A stretch of DNA of 64,000 nucleotides from an uncultured Candidatus Binatia bacterium. Lineage in GTDB: Bacteria > Desulfobacterota > Binatia > UBA9968 > CAXXLF01. Each line of letters opens with the position of its first letter. Position 1 is the first letter of the stretch. The DNA lies in contig OZ244621.1 of the NCBI GenBank assembly GCA_965218425.1, forward strand, positions 2,880,001 through 2,944,000. The letters run 5' to 3'. The notes beneath the pieces were generated by a model. That model was not told the DNA's origin. It saw nothing but the letters and a program-made list of their open reading frames with translations, and did not search any database. A program made the translations under genes and the position numbers. Shown here piece by piece: positions 46,717 to 57,379 of this stretch.

Positions 46717-46928
46717 TTAGGAATCTTCAAAAATGACAAGGGACTTTGTGGGGTCAATTATAAGTTTCTTCTTGAAAGCCCGTAAGAACTCCATGCCAAC
46801 CAAGATCAAACTTTCAGGTGGGCCAAGTACAATTGTGCCAACCTGATCCTCACTCTCCACTCTGGCAAAACCCCTAGCAGTCAATTGAGAACTCAACTTT
46901 CCATCAGCTAATGTTAAAGGCATTATTC
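46717..46928 (-). pseudogene. C-terminal fragment of a clan AA (retropepsin-like) aspartic protease
   Basis: LTLADG...LILVGMEFLRAFKKKLIIDP; 5' part cut off by the IS3 end. Confidence 0.6.
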
Positions 46929-48265
46929 TGAGGCGGTCCTGGTTTGTAGGACAGGATGGCGGAAGAAATAAGGTGTATTCCGGGTAATCGATCATGCCGC
47001 CAGGGTCCTGTTTAACACGTTTCGCTGTTCCGGTAGAGCCGGCAGAGGGGCAGTTGAGCTGGGGCGCTCAGGCTGCGTCCGCGGCAGCATTGCTTGTTCG
47101 TAGGCCTCGGCTGGGGTGGAGCCGGCCAAGGCAGAGTGTGGCCTCTCCCGATCATAAAAGGCGAACCAGCAAGAAATCAGGCGCTGAGCCTGGAAGCCGT
47201 CTGAGAGCTCGTGCAGGTAGACGGCCTCGTACTTGAGGGAGCGCCACAGGCGCTCGATGAAGATGTTGTCCATACACCGGCCTCTACCGTCCATAGAGAT
47301 GGCGACACGGGCGTCGTTGAGCACGGAGGTGAACTCCAGGCTGGTGAACTGGCTGCCCTGGTCGGTGTTGAAGATCTCGGGGCGGCTGTAGCGCTGGAGG
47401 GCTTCGGAGAGGGCCTCGACACAGAAGCGTGCGTCGAGGGTGTTGGAGAGCCTCCAGGAGAGCACGCGGCGGGTGGCCCAGTCCATGACCGCCACCAAGT
47501 ACAGGAAGCCGCGCTGGACCGGGATATAGGTGATGTCCGCGGTCCAGACGTGATTGGGCCGCTCGATGGCGACTCCCTTGAGCAGATAGGGATAAACCCG
47601 GTGCTCCGGATGCGGTCGGGTGGTCCGGGGTGCCTGGTAGATGGCCTGCAGACCCATCAGGCGCATCAGACGCCGCACCCGGTGGCGACCCACACGGACG
47701 CCTTCCCGCCACAGATGGCGGACCATCTGGCGGCTGCCGTAGAATGGGTAGCTCAGAAACAGCTCATCGATCCGGCGCATCAACCCAAGATTCTCTGCGC
47801 TCTCGCCCTTGGGCCTGTGGTACACCGAGGATCGGCTCACACGGAGCAGGTGGCATTGACGGCTCAAGCTGAGCTTGGGATGGCCGGGCTCGATCATCGC
47901 CCGGCGCTTCTCCCGGCTCACCACTTGAGCCCTTTGGCCAAAAAATCCCGCTCCACCGTCAACTCCCCGATCTTCGCGTGCAGGTTCCGGATCTCCCCCT
48001 CGTGCTCCCCACGCGACCGCTCCGCCCCCTTCGAGAAGACCTCCCTCATGCCCTCCACCGCCCGCTGCTTCCAGGTGCTCACCTGGTTCGGGTGTATCTT
48101 GTGCCGCGCCGCGATCTCCTGAATCGTCTTGTCTCCGCGCAGCGCTTCCAGCGCCACCTTCGCCTTGAAGTCCCCGCTGAACCGTCGCCGTGTGCTCATT
48201 GCGCATCCCTCCTTCAGTCGGTGGAATACACCTTAGCAACCTGTCCGTTTTTCGGGACCACCTCA
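46929..48265 (-). mobile_element. IS3-family insertion sequence (OrfA 47918..48199; OrfB ending at 46992)
   Basis: IRs TGAGGCGGTCCTGGTTTGTAGGACAGG / TGAGGTGGTCCCGAAAAACGGACAGG (rc); WTADITYI, FNTDQGSQF and DNIFIERLWRSLKYE motifs. No target duplication. Confidence 0.93.
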
Positions 48266-48266
48266 T

Positions 48267-48398
48267 CTTGACGAATTTAATTTTAGGTACAACCTAAGAA
48301 AGAGCAAGGATGGCGAACGGTCTATTTTGGCAATCAAAGAGGTAAGTGGAAAACGATTGACTTACAAACAGCCAGTTGAAAAGACCACAGACAAATGA
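48267..48398 (+). pseudogene. IS1595-family transposase C-terminal fragment
   Basis: LDEFNFRYNLRKSKDGERSILAIKEVSGKRLTYKQ matches the family tail pattern YLDEFxFRYN...GKRLTY. Confidence 0.85.
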
Positions 48399-48413
48399 TA
48401 CTTTTTTAAGTGA

Positions 48414-48488
48414 TGGGGCGCAGGGGGATCGAACCCCTAGTAAAGCAGATTCCAGGTCTGCTGCGTTTGCCAGTTACGCCAGCGCCCC
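48414..48488 (-). tRNA. Non-canonical tRNA-like gene, anticodon TGG
   Basis: Full cloverleaf: GGGGCGC/GCGCCCC-A acceptor, GCGT/ACGC D stem, GCAGA-CCTGGAA-TCTGC anticodon arm, AGGGG-TTCGATC-CCCCT T arm. No encoded CCA; C33 instead of U33. Confidence 0.8.
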
Positions 48489-48494
48489 ATAAAA

Positions 48495-48944
48495 CTAAGC
48501 AATAATCTCTTTAAGGTCATCGTCTAGACCAAAGTTGTCTGGAAATTCCCCATCATCCACTTTCTGCTGTTGTTCAAACTCAATTAAGCCATAGGTGTTG
48601 GGTGCGGTCTTTGTAAAGATTTCTCCTTTTTTTGAGTAGCTAGCAAGGGATGCTCCAACCGATGAGCGGTTGTTTCTTGTATTTTCCTTTCCTATACCTT
48701 TGAGAATATCCTTGATGTGCATCGGCCTTCCCGACTTCGTGAGACAATCTCTGGCTTTGGCCATATTGCTGCCTTCCCGTAAAGCACGGTCAGTATCCAC
48801 CGAGCCATCTCTGGGTAAAACCTTTAAGGCCTCTTGCAGACCTTGGATAAATGCTTGTAGTTCTCGTAGCTTAGCCTCAGTTTCAGCTATTTCTTGCTTT
48901 TTTATATCTATCTTTCGTTCTAATTGGATTCGGAAATTAATCAT
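48495..48944 (-). CDS. Coiled-coil plus winged-helix (HARE-HTH-like) protein with acidic tail
   Basis: N-terminal heptads; LTKSGRPMHIKDILKGIG...SLASYSKKGEIFTKTAPNTYGL. Confidence 0.7.
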   Translation of the reverse strand: MINFRIQLERKIDIKKQEIAETEAKLRELQAFIQGLQEALKVLPRDGSVDTDRALREGSNMAKARDCLTKSGRPMHIKDILKGIGKENTRNNRSSVGASLASYSKKGEIFTKTAPNTYGLIEFEQQQKVDDGEFPDNFGLDDDLKEIIA

Positions 48945-49080
48945 GGCAATTCCTCCAATATGGGAGATTTACCACATTCACCGAACCATTGTCAACATTT
49001 GATGGAAAATGCTTGCGTTGTGACAACAATATGTTATCATTGCACCTGTGAGATTTTACCAAATCTAAACTGGAGGCAAT

Positions 49081-49908
49081 GTGATGGATGTAAATGAAAT
49101 CCATAAAAAGTTAGATCAAATTAAGCACATACAGGACTTGGGGCCTGAGAGAACAGTCGAATATTGGATGGCTAGGGACCTGCAAGTAATACTTGGATAT
49201 GAAGCCTGGCAGAATTTCGAATCCGTGATTGCAAGGGCGATGCATGCTTGCGAAACCAGCGGCAAGAATCCCGACAATCACTTTAATGCTACCATTAAAG
49301 AGATAAGGGCCGGGAAGGGTGCGATAGGACGACGACAGGATTACCGACTGACAAGATACGCTTGCTACCTTGTGACTATGAATGGCGATCCTAGCCAGAA
49401 ATTACAGGTTGGTCTAGCTCAAACATATTTTGCGGTGCAGACAAGGCGGCAAGAACTCGATGACCAGCTAACCTATGAACAGAAACGACTGATTCAACGC
49501 GAACGAGTAAGAAACGCGAATAAGTATTTAAGTAATGCGGCCAAGAAAGCAGGTGTAAAAAAGTTTGGCGTATTTCAGGATGCAGGCTATCGCGGTCTCT
49601 ATCAAATGAGTTATAAAGAGATCAAGCGAACAAAGGGGATTCCAGACCAGGAAAATCTTTTGGATTGTAGTGGACGGGCTGAGCTGGCTGCGAATGAATT
49701 TCGGATTACCCAAACAGAGGAACGTCTTACCAACGAGAAAATCCAAGGGGAAATGCAAGCTACAAACACCCATCATAAAGTGGGCACAAAGGTGAGGCAA
49801 ACTATCAAAGAGCTTGGCGGAACAATGCCAGAAAAACTGGTCGCTGAGCCATCAATTAAAAGATTGACCCAAAAGAAGCAAAAACAGCTACCGCCTAAAG
49901 ATGAATAA
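49081..49908 (+). CDS. dinD: DNA damage-inducible protein D (BRO-like N-terminus)
   Basis: EYWMARDLQ, LTRYACYL, AQTYFAVQTRRQE, FQDAGYRGLY, ELAANEFRITQTEE and GGTMPE motifs. Confidence 0.9.
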   Translation: MMDVNEIHKKLDQIKHIQDLGPERTVEYWMARDLQVILGYEAWQNFESVIARAMHACETSGKNPDNHFNATIKEIRAGKGAIGRRQDYRLTRYACYLVTMNGDPSQKLQVGLAQTYFAVQTRRQELDDQLTYEQKRLIQRERVRNANKYLSNAAKKAGVKKFGVFQDAGYRGLYQMSYKEIKRTKGIPDQENLLDCSGRAELAANEFRITQTEERLTNEKIQGEMQATNTHHKVGTKVRQTIKELGGTMPEKLVAEPSIKRLTQKKQKQLPPKDE

Positions 49909-50032
49909 AAAGACCACGCCACCTGATAAAGAACTCACCGAAAAGCAATTCCTCGAAGTTTTGAAGGGTTTTCTCGAAGTCAAACCAACCAAGAGAAAGC
50001 CCAAGGCAAAAAAACCCAAATCCAAGAAATAA
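49901..50032 (+). CDS. Small basic 43-aa protein
   Basis: Overlaps the dinD stop; MNKKTTPPDKELTEKQFLEVLKGFLEVKPTKRKPKAKKPKSKK. Confidence 0.45.
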   Translation: MNKKTTPPDKELTEKQFLEVLKGFLEVKPTKRKPKAKKPKSKK

Positions 50033-50087
50033 TTATATTTCAATTACTTACCCTTTCCTGTATTGGGTTTGTGAACGGGATAAGCCA

Positions 50088-50225
50088 CAGTCTGTTAAAG
50101 GCGATAAGGACAAGGCCGTTGGCTTTAACCTAGCAGGCATCAAACAACTTCGATTTACCGATCCAGAACTGGAGTTCACCCCGGCATTGAAGCAAAACAT
50201 CGAGCGTTTCTTCAAATTGAAATAA
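50088..50225 (+). pseudogene. C-terminal fragment of the gene interrupted by the IS1595 element
   Basis: Startless open frame QSVKGDKDKAVGFNLAGIKQLRFTDPELEFTPALKQNIERFFKLK* ending just before the mrr-like gene. Confidence 0.5.
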
Positions 50226-50238
50226 AAGGACTACTTCC

Positions 50239-51294
50239 ATGGCGATCTGGTTAATCCGTGCCGGTTCCCACGGCGAATACGAGCAGAAGTTCATTCAGGA
50301 AAACCGTGTTTATGTGACTTGGGACAGACTCGATGTAGACCTCACCAAGCTCCAGCAAAAGGCCGATTTGACAGCAGCGATGACCGAGCGCTACCCGGAC
50401 AGAAAGCCCAAGACGATTCAGAATTGGGTGAGCCAAGTCTGGCCCTTCGCGCATGAAATGATGAAAGGCGATTTGGTCGTGTTGCCGCTCAAGTCGCAGC
50501 CCGCCATCCAGATTGCCGAGATTACCGGTGACTATCACTTCGAACCTTCTGGACCCGACCCATACTTTCATTGGCGACCCGTGAAGTGGATTGCAGAGGC
50601 CGTGCCGCGCGCCAATTTCGGCCAGGACTTGCTCTATACCTTCGGTGCCTTTATGGCCATCTGCCGGGTCCAACGCAACAATGCAGAGCAACGCATGGCC
50701 GCCATGCAGACGAACGGATGGAAACCTGAAACCATCCAACCCATCTACAAACCATCCAACATATCTACCAAAACCGCGGTGCCGGGCACGGAAGAACTGC
50801 CCGAAGACAGTGACCTTGAAGAACTCGCCCGCGACCAGATCGCTCAGCTCATCGCAGCGCGATTCAAGGGCCACGGACTCACGCGACTGGTCGAAGCTAT
50901 CCTCAAAATCCAGGGTTACACCACCTATCGCAGCGCGGAAGGCCCCGACGGTGGCGTGGATATTATCGCGGGTGCCGGGCCACTCGGCTTCGGGAAGCCG
51001 CGACTCTGCGTCGAAGTGAAATCAGAGAGCGGCCCTATCGACCGCCCGACGGTAGACAAACTGTTGGGCGCGGTTACTAAATTCGGAGCGGACGAAGGCT
51101 TATTCATCTCATGGAGCGGCTTCAAGGGCAACGTGCAGAAGGAACTCGCTGCCAGCTTCTTTCGTGTGCGGCTGTGGACGCAGAAAGAACTACTTGAGCA
51201 ACTATTTACCCACTACGACCACCTGGACGAAGACCTTAAGGCCGAATTGCCTTTGAAAAGAATTTGGACCGTGGCCGTGCAGGACAAAGAATAA
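50239..51294 (+). CDS. Mrr-like (type IV) restriction endonuclease
   Basis: WLIRAG N-terminal domain; Mrr_cat motif GPDGGVDIIA...VEVKS...GLFISWSGF. Confidence 0.88.
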   Translation: MAIWLIRAGSHGEYEQKFIQENRVYVTWDRLDVDLTKLQQKADLTAAMTERYPDRKPKTIQNWVSQVWPFAHEMMKGDLVVLPLKSQPAIQIAEITGDYHFEPSGPDPYFHWRPVKWIAEAVPRANFGQDLLYTFGAFMAICRVQRNNAEQRMAAMQTNGWKPETIQPIYKPSNISTKTAVPGTEELPEDSDLEELARDQIAQLIAARFKGHGLTRLVEAILKIQGYTTYRSAEGPDGGVDIIAGAGPLGFGKPRLCVEVKSESGPIDRPTVDKLLGAVTKFGADEGLFISWSGFKGNVQKELAASFFRVRLWTQKELLEQLFTHYDHLDEDLKAELPLKRIWTVAVQDKE

Positions 51295-51564
51295 CGTTGA
51301 TCTGCTCTCACGCTTCCCGTCCGCCTCAAGGGAGTTGCCATTAACCTCGCTGTGGGGAGATGGAAATAATGAGAAATCTTGGCTAAAACTGTGGATAACC
51401 GGCCCGCTGGCGGCCGGATACGATCCGTCGCCGTTCACCGCGATAGGTACAGGCACGCGGCGGTAGAGATTGTGCCCGCCCGGACGGTCCATAGCGGGCA
51501 GAGGGGTTGCGGGGTCGTCAAAGGTAAGCAGCTCCCGCACTCAGCGCCCAAAGCGTCAGATACG

Positions 51565-51670
51565 ACAAAACCCTGATAAGGTCTCCCTTCGGGGTTTCGC
51601 GTTAACTAACCACCGCCAAAGTTAGCGGTCAGATATACGGCTCCCCGAAGGGAGTTGAATTTGCAGTATA
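51565..51670 (-). promoter_or_regulatory. Candidate leader with alternative terminator/antiterminator hairpins
   Basis: Minus-strand TATACT, CTCCC-TTCG-GGGAG hairpin, 12-bp inverted repeat and competing AAACCCCGA...TCAGGGTTTTG hairpin. Confidence 0.45.
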
Positions 51671-51740
51671 ACTAGCTGAATAATAAAGAATTATTTAGCA
51701 CCTATGATTCTATGGACCCACAAGCGGACCCACGAGGGCA

Positions 51741-53294
51741 CTACTTAAGGTCCGAACTTTCGCGAAATTTCGAAATCAATTCGTCGCCCGGGTAGCAGCT
51801 ATTGATCTTTCCAGAAGATGTGTGGACTCGTAGCTGAAGCGTGTGGAGGTCGCTACCCTTGTAACGCCTTATTGAGAACCGCATAATATAGTAACATTGG
51901 ATAAGAACTTAATGTATAGTGGTGGTATGGGAAACCCACTTGGAGTGCGACGGGACTTTGAAGCATTGGAGCGGCGGTGGATGGAGGCGGGGAGGCTGTT
52001 GAAGCGAGGGCTGTCGGAGGCGGAGGTGGCGCGTTGGGTGGGAGTGCACCGCCAGTCGGTGAATCGATGGGCGCGGCAGTTGGCCGAGAGCGGCAGAGCC
52101 GGGCTCAAGCAGGCGGGGCGTGCCGGACGCAAGCCGCGACTGAGCCCGGCGGATCTGAAGAAGATCGAGGGCGGTTTGAAACGGGGACCCGAAGCGCTGG
52201 GGTACGACACGAGCCTGTGGACCGCAAGGCGAGTGGCCCACTTGATTGGGGAAGCCTGCGGAGTCACATACCATCCGGGCCATGTTTGGCGGATATTGCG
52301 GCAGTTGGGGTGGAGTTGCCAGCGGCCGACGGGACGTGCCTTGGAACGAGATGAAGAGGCGATCCGGCAGTGGAAGAAGAAGCGCTGGCCGGAGATTAAA
52401 AAAAAGCCCGAAACGAGGGGCGAACCATAGTGTTCGTGGACGAAAGCGGGCTGAGCGAGCGGCCGAATCGGTATCGTACGTGGTCGCCCCGAGGACAGAC
52501 GCCAGTGCTGCAATATCACTTCAACTGGAAGAGTCTGTCGGCCATCGCCGGAGTCACCTGGTGGCGCTTGTACTTTCGAGTGTATCCGGGAGCCATCAAG
52601 AGCCCCCAGATCATCGAATTCCTGAAGCACTTGATGCGTCATGTTTCCGGGCCGCTGCTGGTAGTGTGGGACGGACTGCCCAGCCACCGGAGCCGGTTGG
52701 TTCGGGACTTTGTTGCCGCTACCGAAGGCGCGTTGGTGCTGGAACGGTTGCCGGCCTATGCACCGGAACTGAATCCCGTCGAATACCTCTGGGGATACTG
52801 GAAGCATCATGAACTGCCCAACTTCTGTGCCAAGGACTTCGCTCAACTCAGCCACCATGCTCGTCGCGCCCTTTGCCGAATGCGCCGCAGGCCTCGTCTC
52901 GTTACCGCCTTCTGGAAACAGTCCAGCCTTTTCTGATGTCATTATATTATACGAGGATCAATAGGTAGTCAGTGAAGAGCTTGTCTTGAATAACCCATGC
53001 AACTAAGGACGTGTGCCCAGGCAGAATTTCAACTGGTGGTTCACCGTTCTTTGGCTGAAGTGGGCAGTCAAGAAAAATTTGGTGATTTCTCCCTCTGCCG
53101 ATAGACCAGTCCATTGCCCTGACGACGACGGGATATCTGCCCTCATTTAGAACTCTGATCCGCGTCCGCGATTCTTCAACGTCAACCCGAGCTTTGAGTC
53201 TTGGACGATTCCGGTAATCGGTCACGCAAGAAACCAGCTTGTTTAGGCAAGAAACCAGCCATGGAAAAAACTCGGTGAGCCCCATCCCGCCCAA
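51741..53294 (-). pseudogene. Hypothetical protein interrupted by IS630
   Basis: Removing the IS and one TA restores the frame: ...KLFTDYL-RRYKGSDLHTLQLRVHTSSGKINSCYPGDELISKFRESSDLK*. Confidence 0.7.
51870..52963 (+). mobile_element. IS630-family element (ORFs 51897..52430 and 52430..52936, frameshift at an A-run)
   Basis: IRs TATTGAGAACCGCATAATATAGTAACAT / TATTGATCCTCGTATAATATAATGACAT (rc), TA duplication; FVDESG, WDGLPSH and PAYAPELNPVE motifs. Confidence 0.93.
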
Positions 53295-53495
53295 ACTATC
53301 AGACTGGTTGTAAACGGTCCATCGTCACCAGCCCGGTCGGGCGTAGGGTTCAACCCGCCCACACGCAGTCCAACTCCAGATAACGCTGCCCCCGCGCCTC
53401 GGTGATCCCTCCCCGGCACCGCGGAGCCCGATCACCGAATACTACACCCCACCGTCGGCTCGATCGCCGCCGTGCACCCGTTACCGGCGCACACT

Positions 53496-53708
53496 TCAAC
53501 CATCGTCTACCATCAGCCCCGCCAGTGCCGCGGCTTTCGCTAGATCCATGCCGCCGCCCACCATGCTTTGAAACGCCCGCGCCCGACCGGACAGATCCGA
53601 CGCGCGGAGCTCGTGCCAATCGAGAGTCACTTCGGTTTCTAACTTTCGGGTGAGCTCGTCGGAGACAATGCGACCCAGCCGTGAGACGCAATCGAATAAA
53701 GAGCTCAA
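53496..53708 (-). pseudogene. Possible phage portal-like protein C-terminal fragment
   Basis: LGRIVSDELTRKLE...SDLSGRARAFQSMVGGGMD; recognised from memory only. Confidence 0.45.
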
Positions 53709-53858
53709 ATCTTTTGTTGACGGATAACATCTTCCGGATATTCCAGCCGTCTCCGAAATCTTCTATCCGCCCCACGCTTTAAGTGAATCCCGTGGCGCGC
53801 CCGGCCCGCCGCACCGTAACTCCTCACTCCAAACTCCCTGAAATGGGGGTCGGGCAAC

Positions 53859-54019
53859 ATGAAAAAGGGGTCAAGCTCCAGCAGGGTGGCGGTTGTAACA
53901 GCCATCAAACCTGAAAGGAGAAGACCCCCATGCCTTACGTCGGGTTAGACTGTCACAAACGATACGGCCAGGTATATGCCATCGACGAGGCGGTGGTCGG
54001 CGCGGCGGATCAAAAATAA
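53859..54019 (+). mobile_element. IS110-family left end with a truncated transposase N-terminus
   Basis: RBS GAAAGGAG, then MPYVGLDCHKRYGQVYAIDEA from 53930 (first Asp motif of the DEDD domain); stop after 29 codons. Confidence 0.7.
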
Positions 54020-54526
54020 TTGAGAATGGCCTGGAAAATTCGAGAAATTCCGGGGCGAACCGACCCGGAAATCGCCCATGCAAAGCCGCTGAAAGGGCCG
54101 TGCATCGACCGCGCTCGATGCTGGCAATACCCGAGCAGCGTGCCGACGTGCGGCAGGTTCTCGCCCGACATGACCGCTTAGTTGGCTAACGTGTAGCGGA
54201 GGTCATGGAGCCAAAGAGCGCCAAGGCTGGCGTGATCGACCGTGCGCAAGGCGCTTGGGGTGGTGCGGCCGGCGCCGTCGTGCCCGATGTTGTCAGATGC
54301 ACACTTCACGCAGTAGTTCGTTCACTGTCACTGATGAACCGGCGGCGGTCCACGGCGGTATCCCCGATGAAGGTTCGCCGCAGCTCTCCCTTGCCGCTCG
54401 CAAAGCATCACGGTATCTTGAGGGGAGCACGATGAGCACACGGAGCCGGGAACAATTGGACTTTGTCGATTCAAGTGAACATGCCGGACGCCGTCCCGGA
54501 CACGATGCGCCCGCGCAACCCATGCC

Positions 54527-57379
54527 ATGACGCCGGGTGAGTTCATCGCCAAGTGGCGGGCATCGGAACTGAAGGAGCGCTCGGCGTCACAGGAGCACTT
54601 CATCGACCTGTGCCGGCTGTTGGGCGAGCCGACGCCGGCCGAAGCCGACCCGACCGGCGAGCATTACTGCTTCGAGCGCGGCTCACGTAAGGATGGCGGC
54701 GGCGACGGCTGGGCCGACGTGTGGAAGCGGCACTGCTTCGCCTGGGAGTACAAGGGCAAGCACGCGGACCTTGACGCTGCCTTCAACCAGTTGCGGCAAT
54801 ACGCGCTTGCACTGGAGAACCCGCCGTTGCTGATTGTCTCGGACATGGTTCGGTTCCGCATCCGCACCAACTGGACCAACAGCGTCAGCCGGACCCACGA
54901 GTTCGACTTGGCCGATCTTGCGGATGCGGCCACCCGCGACAGGCTCAAGTGGGCGATGTCCGACCCCGAGCGCCTGCGCCCCGGCGAGAGCCGGCAGGCG
55001 CTGACCGAACGCGCGGCGGCGGCCTTCGCATTGCTGGCGCAGTCGTTGCGGGAGCACGGCCACGAGCCGCAGGCAGTGGCGCATTTCGTGAACCGTCTGG
55101 TGTTCTGCATGTTCGTCGAGGATGTGGGCCTGCTGCCCGGCAACATGTTCACCCGGATGCTGGAACAAGGGCGAAAGCGGCCCGGGGACTTCGCCGTCAT
55201 GGCGCGGGATCTGTTCGGGGCGATGTCCACCGGAGGCCGGATCGGGTTCGAGGCGGTGGCGTGGTTCAACGGCGGGCTGTTCGACGACGACACCGCCTTG
55301 CCGCTGGACAAGGCGGAGATCGAGACAACGCTCAAGGCGGCGGCGCTCGACTGGTCGGAGATCGATCCTTCGATCCTGGGCACGCTGTTCGAGCGCGGGC
55401 TCGACCCGGACAAGCGCTCGCAGCTTGGGGCGCACTACACCGACCGGGACAAGATCATGCGGATCATCGAGCCCGTGATCATCCGTCCCTGGCTCGCCGA
55501 ATGGGAGAAGACAAAGGCCGAGGTCGCCGCGGTCCTTGAACGGGCGGATGCGGCCAAACCGAAGGCGGCGGCGACTCGACAGCGGGGGCAGGCGGAACGG
55601 CTACTGCGTGTTTTCCTCGAACGGCTGCGGAAGTTCACCGTGCTCGACCCCGCCTGCGGCTCGGGGAACTTCCTCTATCTGTCGCTGCACGCGCTCAAGG
55701 ACCTGGAGCACCGGGTACAGTTGGAGGCCGAGGCGATGGGCCTCGAACGGGCTTTCCCGGCGGTCGGTCCGGCCAACGTCAAGGGGATCGAGGTCAATGC
55801 CTATGCGGCGGAATTGGCCCGCGTATCGGTCTGGATCGGCGATATACAATGGATGCGTCGAAACGGGTTCAACGAATCGCGCGATCCGATCCTCAAGCCG
55901 CTTGACACCATCGAATGCCGCGACGCGATCCTGACACCGGAGGCTGGCGAGCCGGAGTGGCCGGAGGCCGATGTAGTGATCGGGAACCCGCCGTTTCTCG
56001 GCGGCAAGCTCCTGATTGCCAACCTTGGCGAGGACTACGTTTCGAGCATTTTCACGGTGTATGAGGGCCGCGTGCCTGCGGAAGCCGATCTCGTCTGCTA
56101 CTGGTTCGTGAAGGCCGGTAAACATATAGGATCAAACAAGGCGAAACGGGTCGGGCTTGTAGCAACCAATTCCATTCGCGGTGGCGCTAACCGGCGGGCG
56201 CTGCAAGCCGCGACCGAGGGGCGGCGGATCTTCGAGGCATTGAGCGACGAGCCGTGGGTGATCGACGGGGCGGCAGTGCGGGTGTCGTTGATCTGCTTCT
56301 CGCACGCCGCCGCCGAATCCGTGTCCGGCGCTCGGCTCGACGACGAGTCCGTCGACGAGATCTACGCGGACCTGACGGCGCGGAGCGGCGGCACCGGCTT
56401 CGATCTGACGGGCGTCCGGCGTCTTGCGGAGAACGCCAGCGTGGCTTTCATGGGCGACACGAAGGGTGGTCCCTTCGATGTTGCGGGCGATCGGGCGCGC
56501 GGGTGGCTCCGTCTGCCGGCGAACCCGAACGGCCGGACCAACGCCGACGTTCTGAAGCCGTGGGTGAACGGTATGGACCTCACCCGGCGGCCGGCAGGGA
56601 AGTGGATCGTCGACTTTGGGTTGAAGATGTCAGTCGGCGACGGGGCGCTCTACGAAGAGCCGTTCCGGTGGGTGAAGGAACACGTCCGGTCAACATGGGA
56701 CAAGCAACGTGTAGCCGAGAGACGTGATCAGTGGTGGTTGCACCATCGGCCACGGCCGAACATGTGGGCGGCGCTCGGCAAGCTGTTGCGCTTCATCGCC
56801 ACGCCGACAGTGGCAAAGCACCGACTGTTCGCCTGGCTCGACGCCCGCATCTGTCCGGATCATCAACTGATCGTCATCGCGCGCGACGACGACACGACCT
56901 TCGGCATCCTGCACAGCCGCTTCCACGAAGCGTGGTCGCTCAGGCTCGGCACCAGCTTGGAAGATCGCCCGCGTTACACGCCGACCACTACCTTCGAGAC
57001 CTTCCCTTTCCCGGAAGGGCTGTCGCCCGACATTCCCGCCGCCGACTATGCAAACGACCCGCATGCTAGGGCCATCGCCGAGGCCGCGCGGAGGCTTGTC
57101 GAACTGCGCGACCGCTGGCTCAACCCGCCTGAATGGGTGGAATGGGTAGACGAGCCGGTCCCCGGCTATCCCATGCGTCCTGTCGCCCGCGACCAAGCGG
57201 CCGCGAAGGAACTCAAGAAACGCACCTTGACCAATCTTTACAACGCCCGTCCGCAATGGCTCACCGACGCCCACGTGAACCTCGACGCTGCCGTCGCGGC
57301 AGCCTATGGATGGGATGCCGGGATTTCAGAGGATGAAGCCCTGAAGAAACTGTTAGAATTGAACCACCAGAGAAAATGA
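54527..57379 (+). CDS. MmeI-like type IIG restriction-modification enzyme / N6-adenine methyltransferase
   Basis: N-terminal GWADVWK...EYK nuclease-like motif; GAHYT, LDPACGSGNFL, GNPPF and C-terminal LDAAVAAAYGW. Confidence 0.9.
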   Translation: MTPGEFIAKWRASELKERSASQEHFIDLCRLLGEPTPAEADPTGEHYCFERGSRKDGGGDGWADVWKRHCFAWEYKGKHADLDAAFNQLRQYALALENPPLLIVSDMVRFRIRTNWTNSVSRTHEFDLADLADAATRDRLKWAMSDPERLRPGESRQALTERAAAAFALLAQSLREHGHEPQAVAHFVNRLVFCMFVEDVGLLPGNMFTRMLEQGRKRPGDFAVMARDLFGAMSTGGRIGFEAVAWFNGGLFDDDTALPLDKAEIETTLKAAALDWSEIDPSILGTLFERGLDPDKRSQLGAHYTDRDKIMRIIEPVIIRPWLAEWEKTKAEVAAVLERADAAKPKAAATRQRGQAERLLRVFLERLRKFTVLDPACGSGNFLYLSLHALKDLEHRVQLEAEAMGLERAFPAVGPANVKGIEVNAYAAELARVSVWIGDIQWMRRNGFNESRDPILKPLDTIECRDAILTPEAGEPEWPEADVVIGNPPFLGGKLLIANLGEDYVSSIFTVYEGRVPAEADLVCYWFVKAGKHIGSNKAKRVGLVATNSIRGGANRRALQAATEGRRIFEALSDEPWVIDGAAVRVSLICFSHAAAESVSGARLDDESVDEIYADLTARSGGTGFDLTGVRRLAENASVAFMGDTKGGPFDVAGDRARGWLRLPANPNGRTNADVLKPWVNGMDLTRRPAGKWIVDFGLKMSVGDGALYEEPFRWVKEHVRSTWDKQRVAERRDQWWLHHRPRPNMWAALGKLLRFIATPTVAKHRLFAWLDARICPDHQLIVIARDDDTTFGILHSRFHEAWSLRLGTSLEDRPRYTPTTTFETFPFPEGLSPDIPAADYANDPHARAIAEAARRLVELRDRWLNPPEWVEWVDEPVPGYPMRPVARDQAAAKELKKRTLTNLYNARPQWLTDAHVNLDAAVAAAYGWDAGISEDEALKKLLELNHQRK

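Follow-up and report, generated by a model that had tools for sequence, protein, structure and literature searches.

The only tRNA gene called by ARAGORN in the window, the whole 64-kb stretch of DNA analysed here, lies on the minus strand at 48414-48488 and is reported as tRNA-Pro(TGG). Read from 48488 to 48414, its 75 nt form a cloverleaf with a 7-bp acceptor stem, a 4-bp D stem and 5-bp anticodon and T stems, every pair being Watson-Crick and the acceptor branch being 7/5. The gene matches Rfam RF00005 with 53.3 bits (E 1.2e-8), and the cloverleaf is its minimum-energy fold (z -2.55), matched in stability by 4 of 200 shuffles. A preliminary description made from the letters had noted fully paired stems, a CCUGGAA anticodon loop with C33, a UGG anticodon and A37, a G1:C72 end pair, A73, a 6-nt variable region and no encoded CCA, and each of these features is confirmed, with TCA standing 3′ of A73 in place of CCA. 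A promoter scan returned nothing above chance. One public contig shows zero differences over 48224-50400 and possibly comes from the same source sample, and is hence not counted as independent support.

Identity elements of both proline and leucine are found in the gene. The proline features are the UGG anticodon (G35 and G36) and A73, and the C1:G72, G15:C48 and G37 of bacterial tRNA-Pro are absent, their places being taken by G1:C72, A15:U48 and A37. The Leu-like D region that had been pointed out earlier is part of a body that is Leu-type as a whole: compared with published determinants, the sequence has A73, A14, A15:U48, G18G19 and A20a together with G18:U55, G19:C56 and U54:A58, and it lacks the Leu anticodon (A35) and the long type II variable arm, having 6 nt only. 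In the available text of PMC9976931, leucine determinants in E. coli include A73, A15-U48, G18G19 and A20a, tRNA-Leu identity does not depend critically on the anticodon or on the long arm, and bacterial proline identity requires G72 and G15:C48. The host genome (4.46 Mb) contains leuS, and its ProRS is of the bacterial type only, with no archaeal-type ProRS found in it. Three ordinary tRNA-Pro genes, including a tRNA-Pro(UGG), make the window tRNA surplus; the five tRNA-Leu genes of the host are all long-armed, the window tRNA gene is present in a single copy, and CCA is the least used Pro codon (15%). The absence of an encoded CCA is not odd in this host, since none of the seven tRNA genes checked (chosen as ARAGORN showed no CCA) encodes it and these include the sole genes for Phe(GAA), Lys(UUU), Val(UAC), Arg(CCU) and Arg(CCG). 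Outside the window, ARAGORN also calls a tRNA-Gly(tcc) at G000:C1:2865309-2865404, an apparent false call with no normal D or T loop.

The tRNA gene is convergent with the 3′ stump of an IS1595-family transposase (48266-48398, plus strand, about 43 codons; E 2e-11 by tblastn to IS1595 loci and 4.6e-11 with a family HMM), whose stop codon lies 15 nt from the tRNA 3′ end. This very short piece has no Pfam match, and a homologue search with the 45-aa stump returned nothing. At 48372-48374 (plus strand) it carries a CCA codon, cognate to UGG, at a C-terminal signature site (RLxYxx-P) that is recognized from the sequence and from the family counts given below. The preliminary description, sound on the features of the tRNA, had left both the stump and this codon match out of its account. 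The transposase is cut off by an insertion sequence at 46929-48265 (minus strand; HTH_Tnp_1 on 47918-48199, similar TG-starting ends) that we take to be IS3-type. The absence of a visible target duplication or direct repeat flanking this element points to a deletion beside it, and no N-terminal transposase piece was found adjoining it. Only the C-terminal stump stands next to the tRNA, and the transposase of the window copy is dead. The same insertion sequence cuts an ORF whose 3′ part (46717-46928, minus strand) has no Pfam match and contains what we take to be an aspartic-protease-like motif.

On the other side of the tRNA gene, a 149-aa ORF on the same strand (48495-48944, minus) ends 6 nt before it; this ORF has a weak HARE-HTH match (PF05066, E 6e-5, below cut-off) and 23 homologues besides itself. 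It is likely a passenger co-transcribed with the tRNA. It also stands upstream of the tRNA in two relatives, L403 and L483, and the viral locus L403 has dinD, the HARE-HTH ORF and the tRNA (loop CCAGGAA) in the same order, adjoining a complete transposase. The HARE-HTH gene was rejected as an obligate partner, a family tRNA being found at none of 10 other homologue loci (with one 15-bit marginal match) and an IS1595 match at none of the six loci checked. Divergent from this ORF lies a dinD passenger (DNA damage-inducible protein D; 49081-49908, plus strand; NF008573, 306.9 bits against a cut-off of 242), and next to it a 43-aa lysine-rich small ORF (49901-50032, plus strand) that has no Pfam or NCBIfam match and is a probable passenger. 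A tentative candidate for the right terminal inverted repeat of the IS1595 element lies at 50064-50088 (minus strand); its 8.1 bits, in a matrix built from 40 family ends, fall below the training minimum of 11.6, and it is the third best match on its strand in the window, with both its place and its direction as expected. No left end of the element was found in the window. Beyond the element lies a defence-like island (50239-57379). An Mrr_cat restriction endonuclease is encoded at 50239-51294, followed by a DDE_3 transposase in two ORFs (51897-52936), the end of which is repeated many times across the genome, and by a restriction-modification enzyme of the MmeI type (54527-57379).

Instead of a one-off chimera, as first proposed, the gene is one member of a recurrent family of IS1595-borne tRNAs with a Leu body and a UGG anticodon. 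A search pattern combining a Leu-type D arm with a YY-NGG loop, in which A73 and U48 were not required, matches 21 viral and at least 120 GTDB loci (141 listed), and stems are intact in 95 of the 141 matches listed. The anticodons of these 95 listed members are UGG in 86, AGG in 5, GGG in 2 and CGG in 2; A73 is present in 91 and U48 in 94, pair 1:72 is G:C or G:U in 87, and a 6-7 nt variable region occurs in 2. The missing CCA, C33 and A37, which had been regarded as oddities, lose that status among the same 95 listed members, of which 22 encode CCA, 12 have C33 and 68 have A37, the commonest state. An IS1595 transposase adjoins 45 of the 69 intact members with at least 3 kb of context, 4 of 31 non-intact pattern matches and a single one of the 120 short-arm loci of Leu type that served as controls, in each case among the matches listed; in the one control locus (L059, UGG) the tRNA is convergent with the transposase, as in the window. 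In 20 of 33 relatives examined, the tRNA is enclosed by inverted repeats with a perfect 8-bp target duplication. The named hosts of the family include Planctomycetota, Acidobacteriota, Gemmatimonadota, Pseudomonadota and others, and a genome of the host's own class (L328) contains a sister tRNA with an identical CCUGGAA loop in the same convergent layout. The window tRNA falls within the family by its Leu body, its NGG anticodon and the cognate codon at the transposase C-terminal site, and scores 72.4 bits with the family model R1, of whose training set it is a part. One locus from an unpublished genome (L231, G401) is counted in the sets of 95, 69, 45, 33 and 20 and in alignment A1 and lies outside the sets of 41 and 56 transposases described below; no conclusion depends on it alone.

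Covariation among the homologues, proposed earlier as a check, is strong in 60 rows chosen for intact stems: 333 two-sided changes are found in 1199 cells, and 0 of 500 shuffles are as high. The earlier view that the gene is not the product of random decay is supported. In a quick tree, presence of the tRNA changes 16 times, compared with 33.8 for shuffles. IS1595 elements in general appear to lack such tRNAs, since Rfam detects one ordinary tRNA-Leu in 20 host-phylum IS1595 loci and model R1 detects one family tRNA (L328) in 40 wider IS1595 loci. Copies of the window tRNA itself are absent from plasmids, exact or near copies are absent from viral contigs, and phages give two partial matches to tRNA-Leu. 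Among 401 host-phylum genomes (host included), weak partial matches occur in 7 others only, and these were rejected as copies, six lying at ordinary Leu or Ala tRNAs and one at a locus without an ARAGORN tRNA. A looser short-arm/NGG pattern gives 23 matches in viral contigs, 0 of them beside IS1595, and by eye these are chance matches except for one locus in a phage tRNA cluster. A reading of the loop shifted by one base, as Ser(GGA) or Gln(CUG), was also considered and seems less likely: positions 37 and 38 vary and U34 is kept in 86 of 95 intact members among the matches listed, but G35-G36 were fixed by the search pattern.

Some elements depart from the family pattern. Leu-body tRNAs with non-NGG loops lie in IS1595 elements at L361:5291-5374, L418:5630-5711 and L432:3034-3117, the loops being one Ser GGA, one UAA of 'stop' type (ARAGORN) and one of 8 nt, and the sequences raise the possibility that the IS1595 tRNA family may sample further anticodons. 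At L483:1767-1991 and L484:1943-2146, two short-armed sister elements both lie just upstream of a gene whose product resembles a cold-shock protein, which suggests that they share an insertion site.

Short-armed tRNA-Leu bodies are common in metagenomes, where a pattern scan returned at least 120 loci (full flanks for 80) that by eye have mostly Leu anticodons. One recurrent class has a Leu-type D arm, U1:A72, G73 and a UUGUUGG loop (GUU anticodon), often with the first anticodon-stem pair unpaired (L053, L057, L064, L067, L073, L075, L079, L088, L095 and others). Another short-armed type, a tRNA-Leu(UAA) whose anticodon stem is mispaired, lacks CCA, has the same 6-nt variable region as the window tRNA and is near-identical in many metagenome contigs (L056, L065, L076, L083, L087). 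The described type I tRNAs-Leu, namely S. coelicolor tRNA-Leu(CAA) (PMC6614811, available text) and the phage tRNAs-Leu L009 and L010, share the Leu-type D loop and short variable region of the window tRNA but carry Leu anticodons in place of UGG. According to the same available text, S. coelicolor LeuRS charges the short-armed (5-nt-loop) tRNA-Leu, and E. coli LeuRS does not (PMC6614811). For the window tRNA, the short arm is thus the weakest part of the case for leucine identity.

The anticodon of the family has a counterpart in the neighbouring transposases. Complete transposases were compared in two sets, 41 with a UGG tRNA and 56 without a tRNA within at least 2.5 kb on both sides, and 23 transposases with short flanks and 6 with other anticodons were set aside. 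At the C-terminal RLxYxx site, transposases with a UGG tRNA encode proline by CCA in 30 of 30 cases, and the tRNA-less relatives do so in 1 of 16. The UGG-linked transposases also have CCA at 27 of 28 N-terminal and 8 of 8 third sites, in a set whose GC3 is 0.74 and whose other four-fold boxes have 10% A-ending codons; at least one CCA is present in 41 of 41, and 14 of the 56 others have none at all. When loci are picked by transposase alone, a C-terminal CCA is found in 7 of 11 with the tRNA versus 1 of 56 without (p 3e-6), and of nine independent pairs (FastTree) typically seven agree and none opposes (median p 0.016, range 0.008-0.125). The tRNA-less L399, within a tRNA-rich clade, has CCG. 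Evidence on anticodon switches comes from two AGG elements. In L364 the middle site and the C-terminal site are both CCT; the transposase of L403 contains CCT four times, CCA nowhere, and CCC at the N-terminal site. The signature is kept in 5 of 5 C33 members and in the short-armed L483, L484 and L059.

The residue at these sites is less constant. In the 56 tRNA-less relatives the C-terminal site holds Pro in 16 (often CCG, CCC or CCT), Thr in 10, and Leu, Ser and Ile in 6 each. The residues aligned opposite CCA codons are 5% Leu, and the idea that CCA sites mark conserved-Leu columns was dropped on that count; since tRNA-less relatives often keep Pro and few Leu stand opposite CCA, Leu is not required at the signature site. 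CCA is depleted at core prolines (6 of 184 against 23 of 209, p 0.003), but a purge of CCA from essential prolines is not upheld against GC-matched controls (7 of 126, p 0.39). In a model of the L328 transposase (pLDDT 92.5), the N-terminal CCA proline lies inside helix 17-27 and the two other CCA prolines lie in coil, which lends Leu insertion weak support at most. In the window element, CCA encodes P250 of DinD (Pro in 14 of 15 homologues) and P135 of the HARE-HTH protein (invariant in 23 rows), which is evidence against strong misreading there.

Given the gene, its family, the link to IS1595 and the codon-anticodon match seen here, the balance tips modestly towards a reading in which host LeuRS charges the window tRNA and Leu is inserted at CCA codons, including the own-transposase CCA codons of relatives, where this would tune the transposase. 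The tRNA would be transcribed together with the upstream HARE-HTH ORF, receive CCA after processing and be leucylated by host LeuRS; leucylation is expected rather than prolylation because bacterial LeuRS ignores the anticodon and bacterial ProRS wants G72. The Leu-charged tRNA would compete at CCA with host tRNA-Pro(UGG), and this competition would produce mixed Pro/Leu transposase, whose amount or activity could be set, up or down, by the level of the element's own tRNA. In the host of the window copy, misreading would reach at most passenger and host CCA codons because the transposase of this copy is dead. In the relatives CCA is held although one transition would convert it to a Leu codon and one synonymous change would let it escape, so selection looks as if it acts on conditional or mixed reading and not on Leu or Pro as such. 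Among the three fates proposed in the preliminary description (uncharged, mischarged or a structural mimic), mischarging with recoding of Pro codons would fit these sequences best. A conflict between identity elements of a kind that would point to an inert mimic is not supported: C33, A37, an absent CCA and a short arm recur among relatives, host genes and metagenomes. For IS1595 elements of this kind more widely, we tentatively propose a private codon, with the case for it falling just short of even: a Leu-charged tRNA with a Pro anticodon would read its cognate codon at fixed transposase sites, the codon following changes of anticodon and loss of the tRNA, and transposition would come under element-encoded recoding.

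Leucine charging in the family could also be accepted with the window copy set apart as a relic that has lost its variable arm, goes uncharged by host LeuRS and survives beside a dead transposase. The truncated transposase, the lack of a left end in the window, the rarity of the short arm (2 of 95 among the matches listed), the rejection of type I tRNA-Leu by E. coli LeuRS and the use of CCA for conserved prolines of two passengers all favour such an account. We nevertheless regard it as unlikely, as no stem is broken and the D loop and U48 are intact as well, the transposases beside three short-armed relatives keep the signature CCA, and a 5-nt-loop tRNA-Leu is charged by S. coelicolor LeuRS.

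A further alternative replaces the inserted residue by ribosome kinetics, in that a poorly charged or poorly decoding tRNA (C33, A37, no m1G37) would pause, drop or frameshift at CCA and so damp transposase synthesis. The codon rather than the residue indeed seems selected, as signature sites stay Pro in tRNA-less relatives and CCA is present in every UGG-linked transposase and wholly absent from a quarter of the others, and tRNA-Pro(UGG) is reportedly frameshift-prone. However, the base after the C-terminal CCA varies (G14, A9, C4, U2 and one gap), with no conserved slippery site seen there, it would be unusual for control to act through a stall so near the end, three to ten codons ahead of the stop, and the Leu determinants are conserved. 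In addition, tRNA-ProX translates despite A33, according to the available text of PMC10404621, and the kinetic account is improbable overall. Charging with Pro, by which the tRNA would simply serve the element's use of a rarer Pro codon, agrees with G35, G36 and A73, with a G1:C72 pair that suits archaeal-type ProRS, with the low host use of CCA and with signature sites that are still Pro in relatives; it is very improbable in a host that has no archaeal-type ProRS and already has a tRNA-Pro(UGG), and in a family where, among the matches listed, 87 of the 95 members have G:C or G:U at 1:72 and U48 is retained at a position for which Pro identity calls for G15:C48. An integration-site remnant or chance hybrid of two tRNAs, to which the position at the edge of a mobile, restriction-gene-rich island might point, is largely refuted by the family data, including the 20 of 33 relatives with the tRNA inside the element, by fully paired 5′ and 3′ acceptor strands and by a genome that contains neither another copy nor a duplicated 3′ portion of the gene.

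The preferred reading, leucine charging with insertion at CCA, has parallels in several known systems. Transporter insertion sequences of the IS1595 family carry passenger genes, and the relatives found here, whose transposases match Pfam PF12762 and PF12760, likewise have a transposase and passengers between inverted repeats with an 8-bp target duplication, although a passenger tRNA matched to transposase codons was not found in the literature on such elements. In Streptomyces, the bldA tRNA gates genes with its cognate, uncommon codon TTA; bldA is cognately charged and is the only reader of its codon, whereas the host of the window tRNA has its own CCA reader, so that any gate would be competitive. 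The tRNA-ProX genes of Streptomyces and Kitasatospora (tRNA-ProA, -ProN and -ProT) are a natural case of dual identity in which anticodon and charged residue are mismatched, a non-U33 loop (A33) is active in translation and annotation by anticodon is misleading (available text of PMC10404621). Their design is opposite to that of the window tRNA, a Pro body (C1:G72) with A33/A34 and non-Pro anticodons as against a Leu body with a Pro anticodon, and they usually come with their own ProRS isoform, whereas the window tRNA is IS1595-borne and a scan of neighbouring ORFs shows no synthetase. Allo-tRNAs and polycistrons of irregular tRNAs, some of them near transposon or toxin-antitoxin genes, are likewise missense tRNAs, their synthetase charging them without regard to the anticodon, and the available text of these accounts reports no codon match with a neighbouring transposase (PMC5389517, PMC7609411). 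As described there, allo-tRNAs have an 8/4 or 9/3 acceptor branch and a long variable arm and are mostly Ser or Ala types, unlike the 7/5, short-armed, Leu-type window tRNA; the supplements of PMC5389517 list irregular tRNAs and may include members of the present family. The window tRNA lacks the structural hallmarks of both tRNA-ProX and allo-tRNAs but probably works like both.

A full-text literature search, with most subscription journals outside its reach, found no paper on IS-borne tRNAs that join a Leu body to a Pro anticodon, and none on such a tRNA matched to the codons of its transposase. The novelty would lie in a dual-identity tRNA of a known kind for which the sequences suggest an identifiable target. 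To our knowledge, few families of natural tRNAs that mistranslate deliberately have been described, mostly with no established purpose. In the present family the sequence itself shows the likely target, as in many phyla the cognate codon is retained at fixed positions of the transposase that the element encodes. Annotations of tRNA-Pro(TGG) beside IS1595 transposases are probably mislabelled, and the family points to a mobile source of Pro-to-Leu noise in the proteome. If the private-codon reading is true, these elements would represent a way of regulating mobile elements for which the literature search found no precedent.
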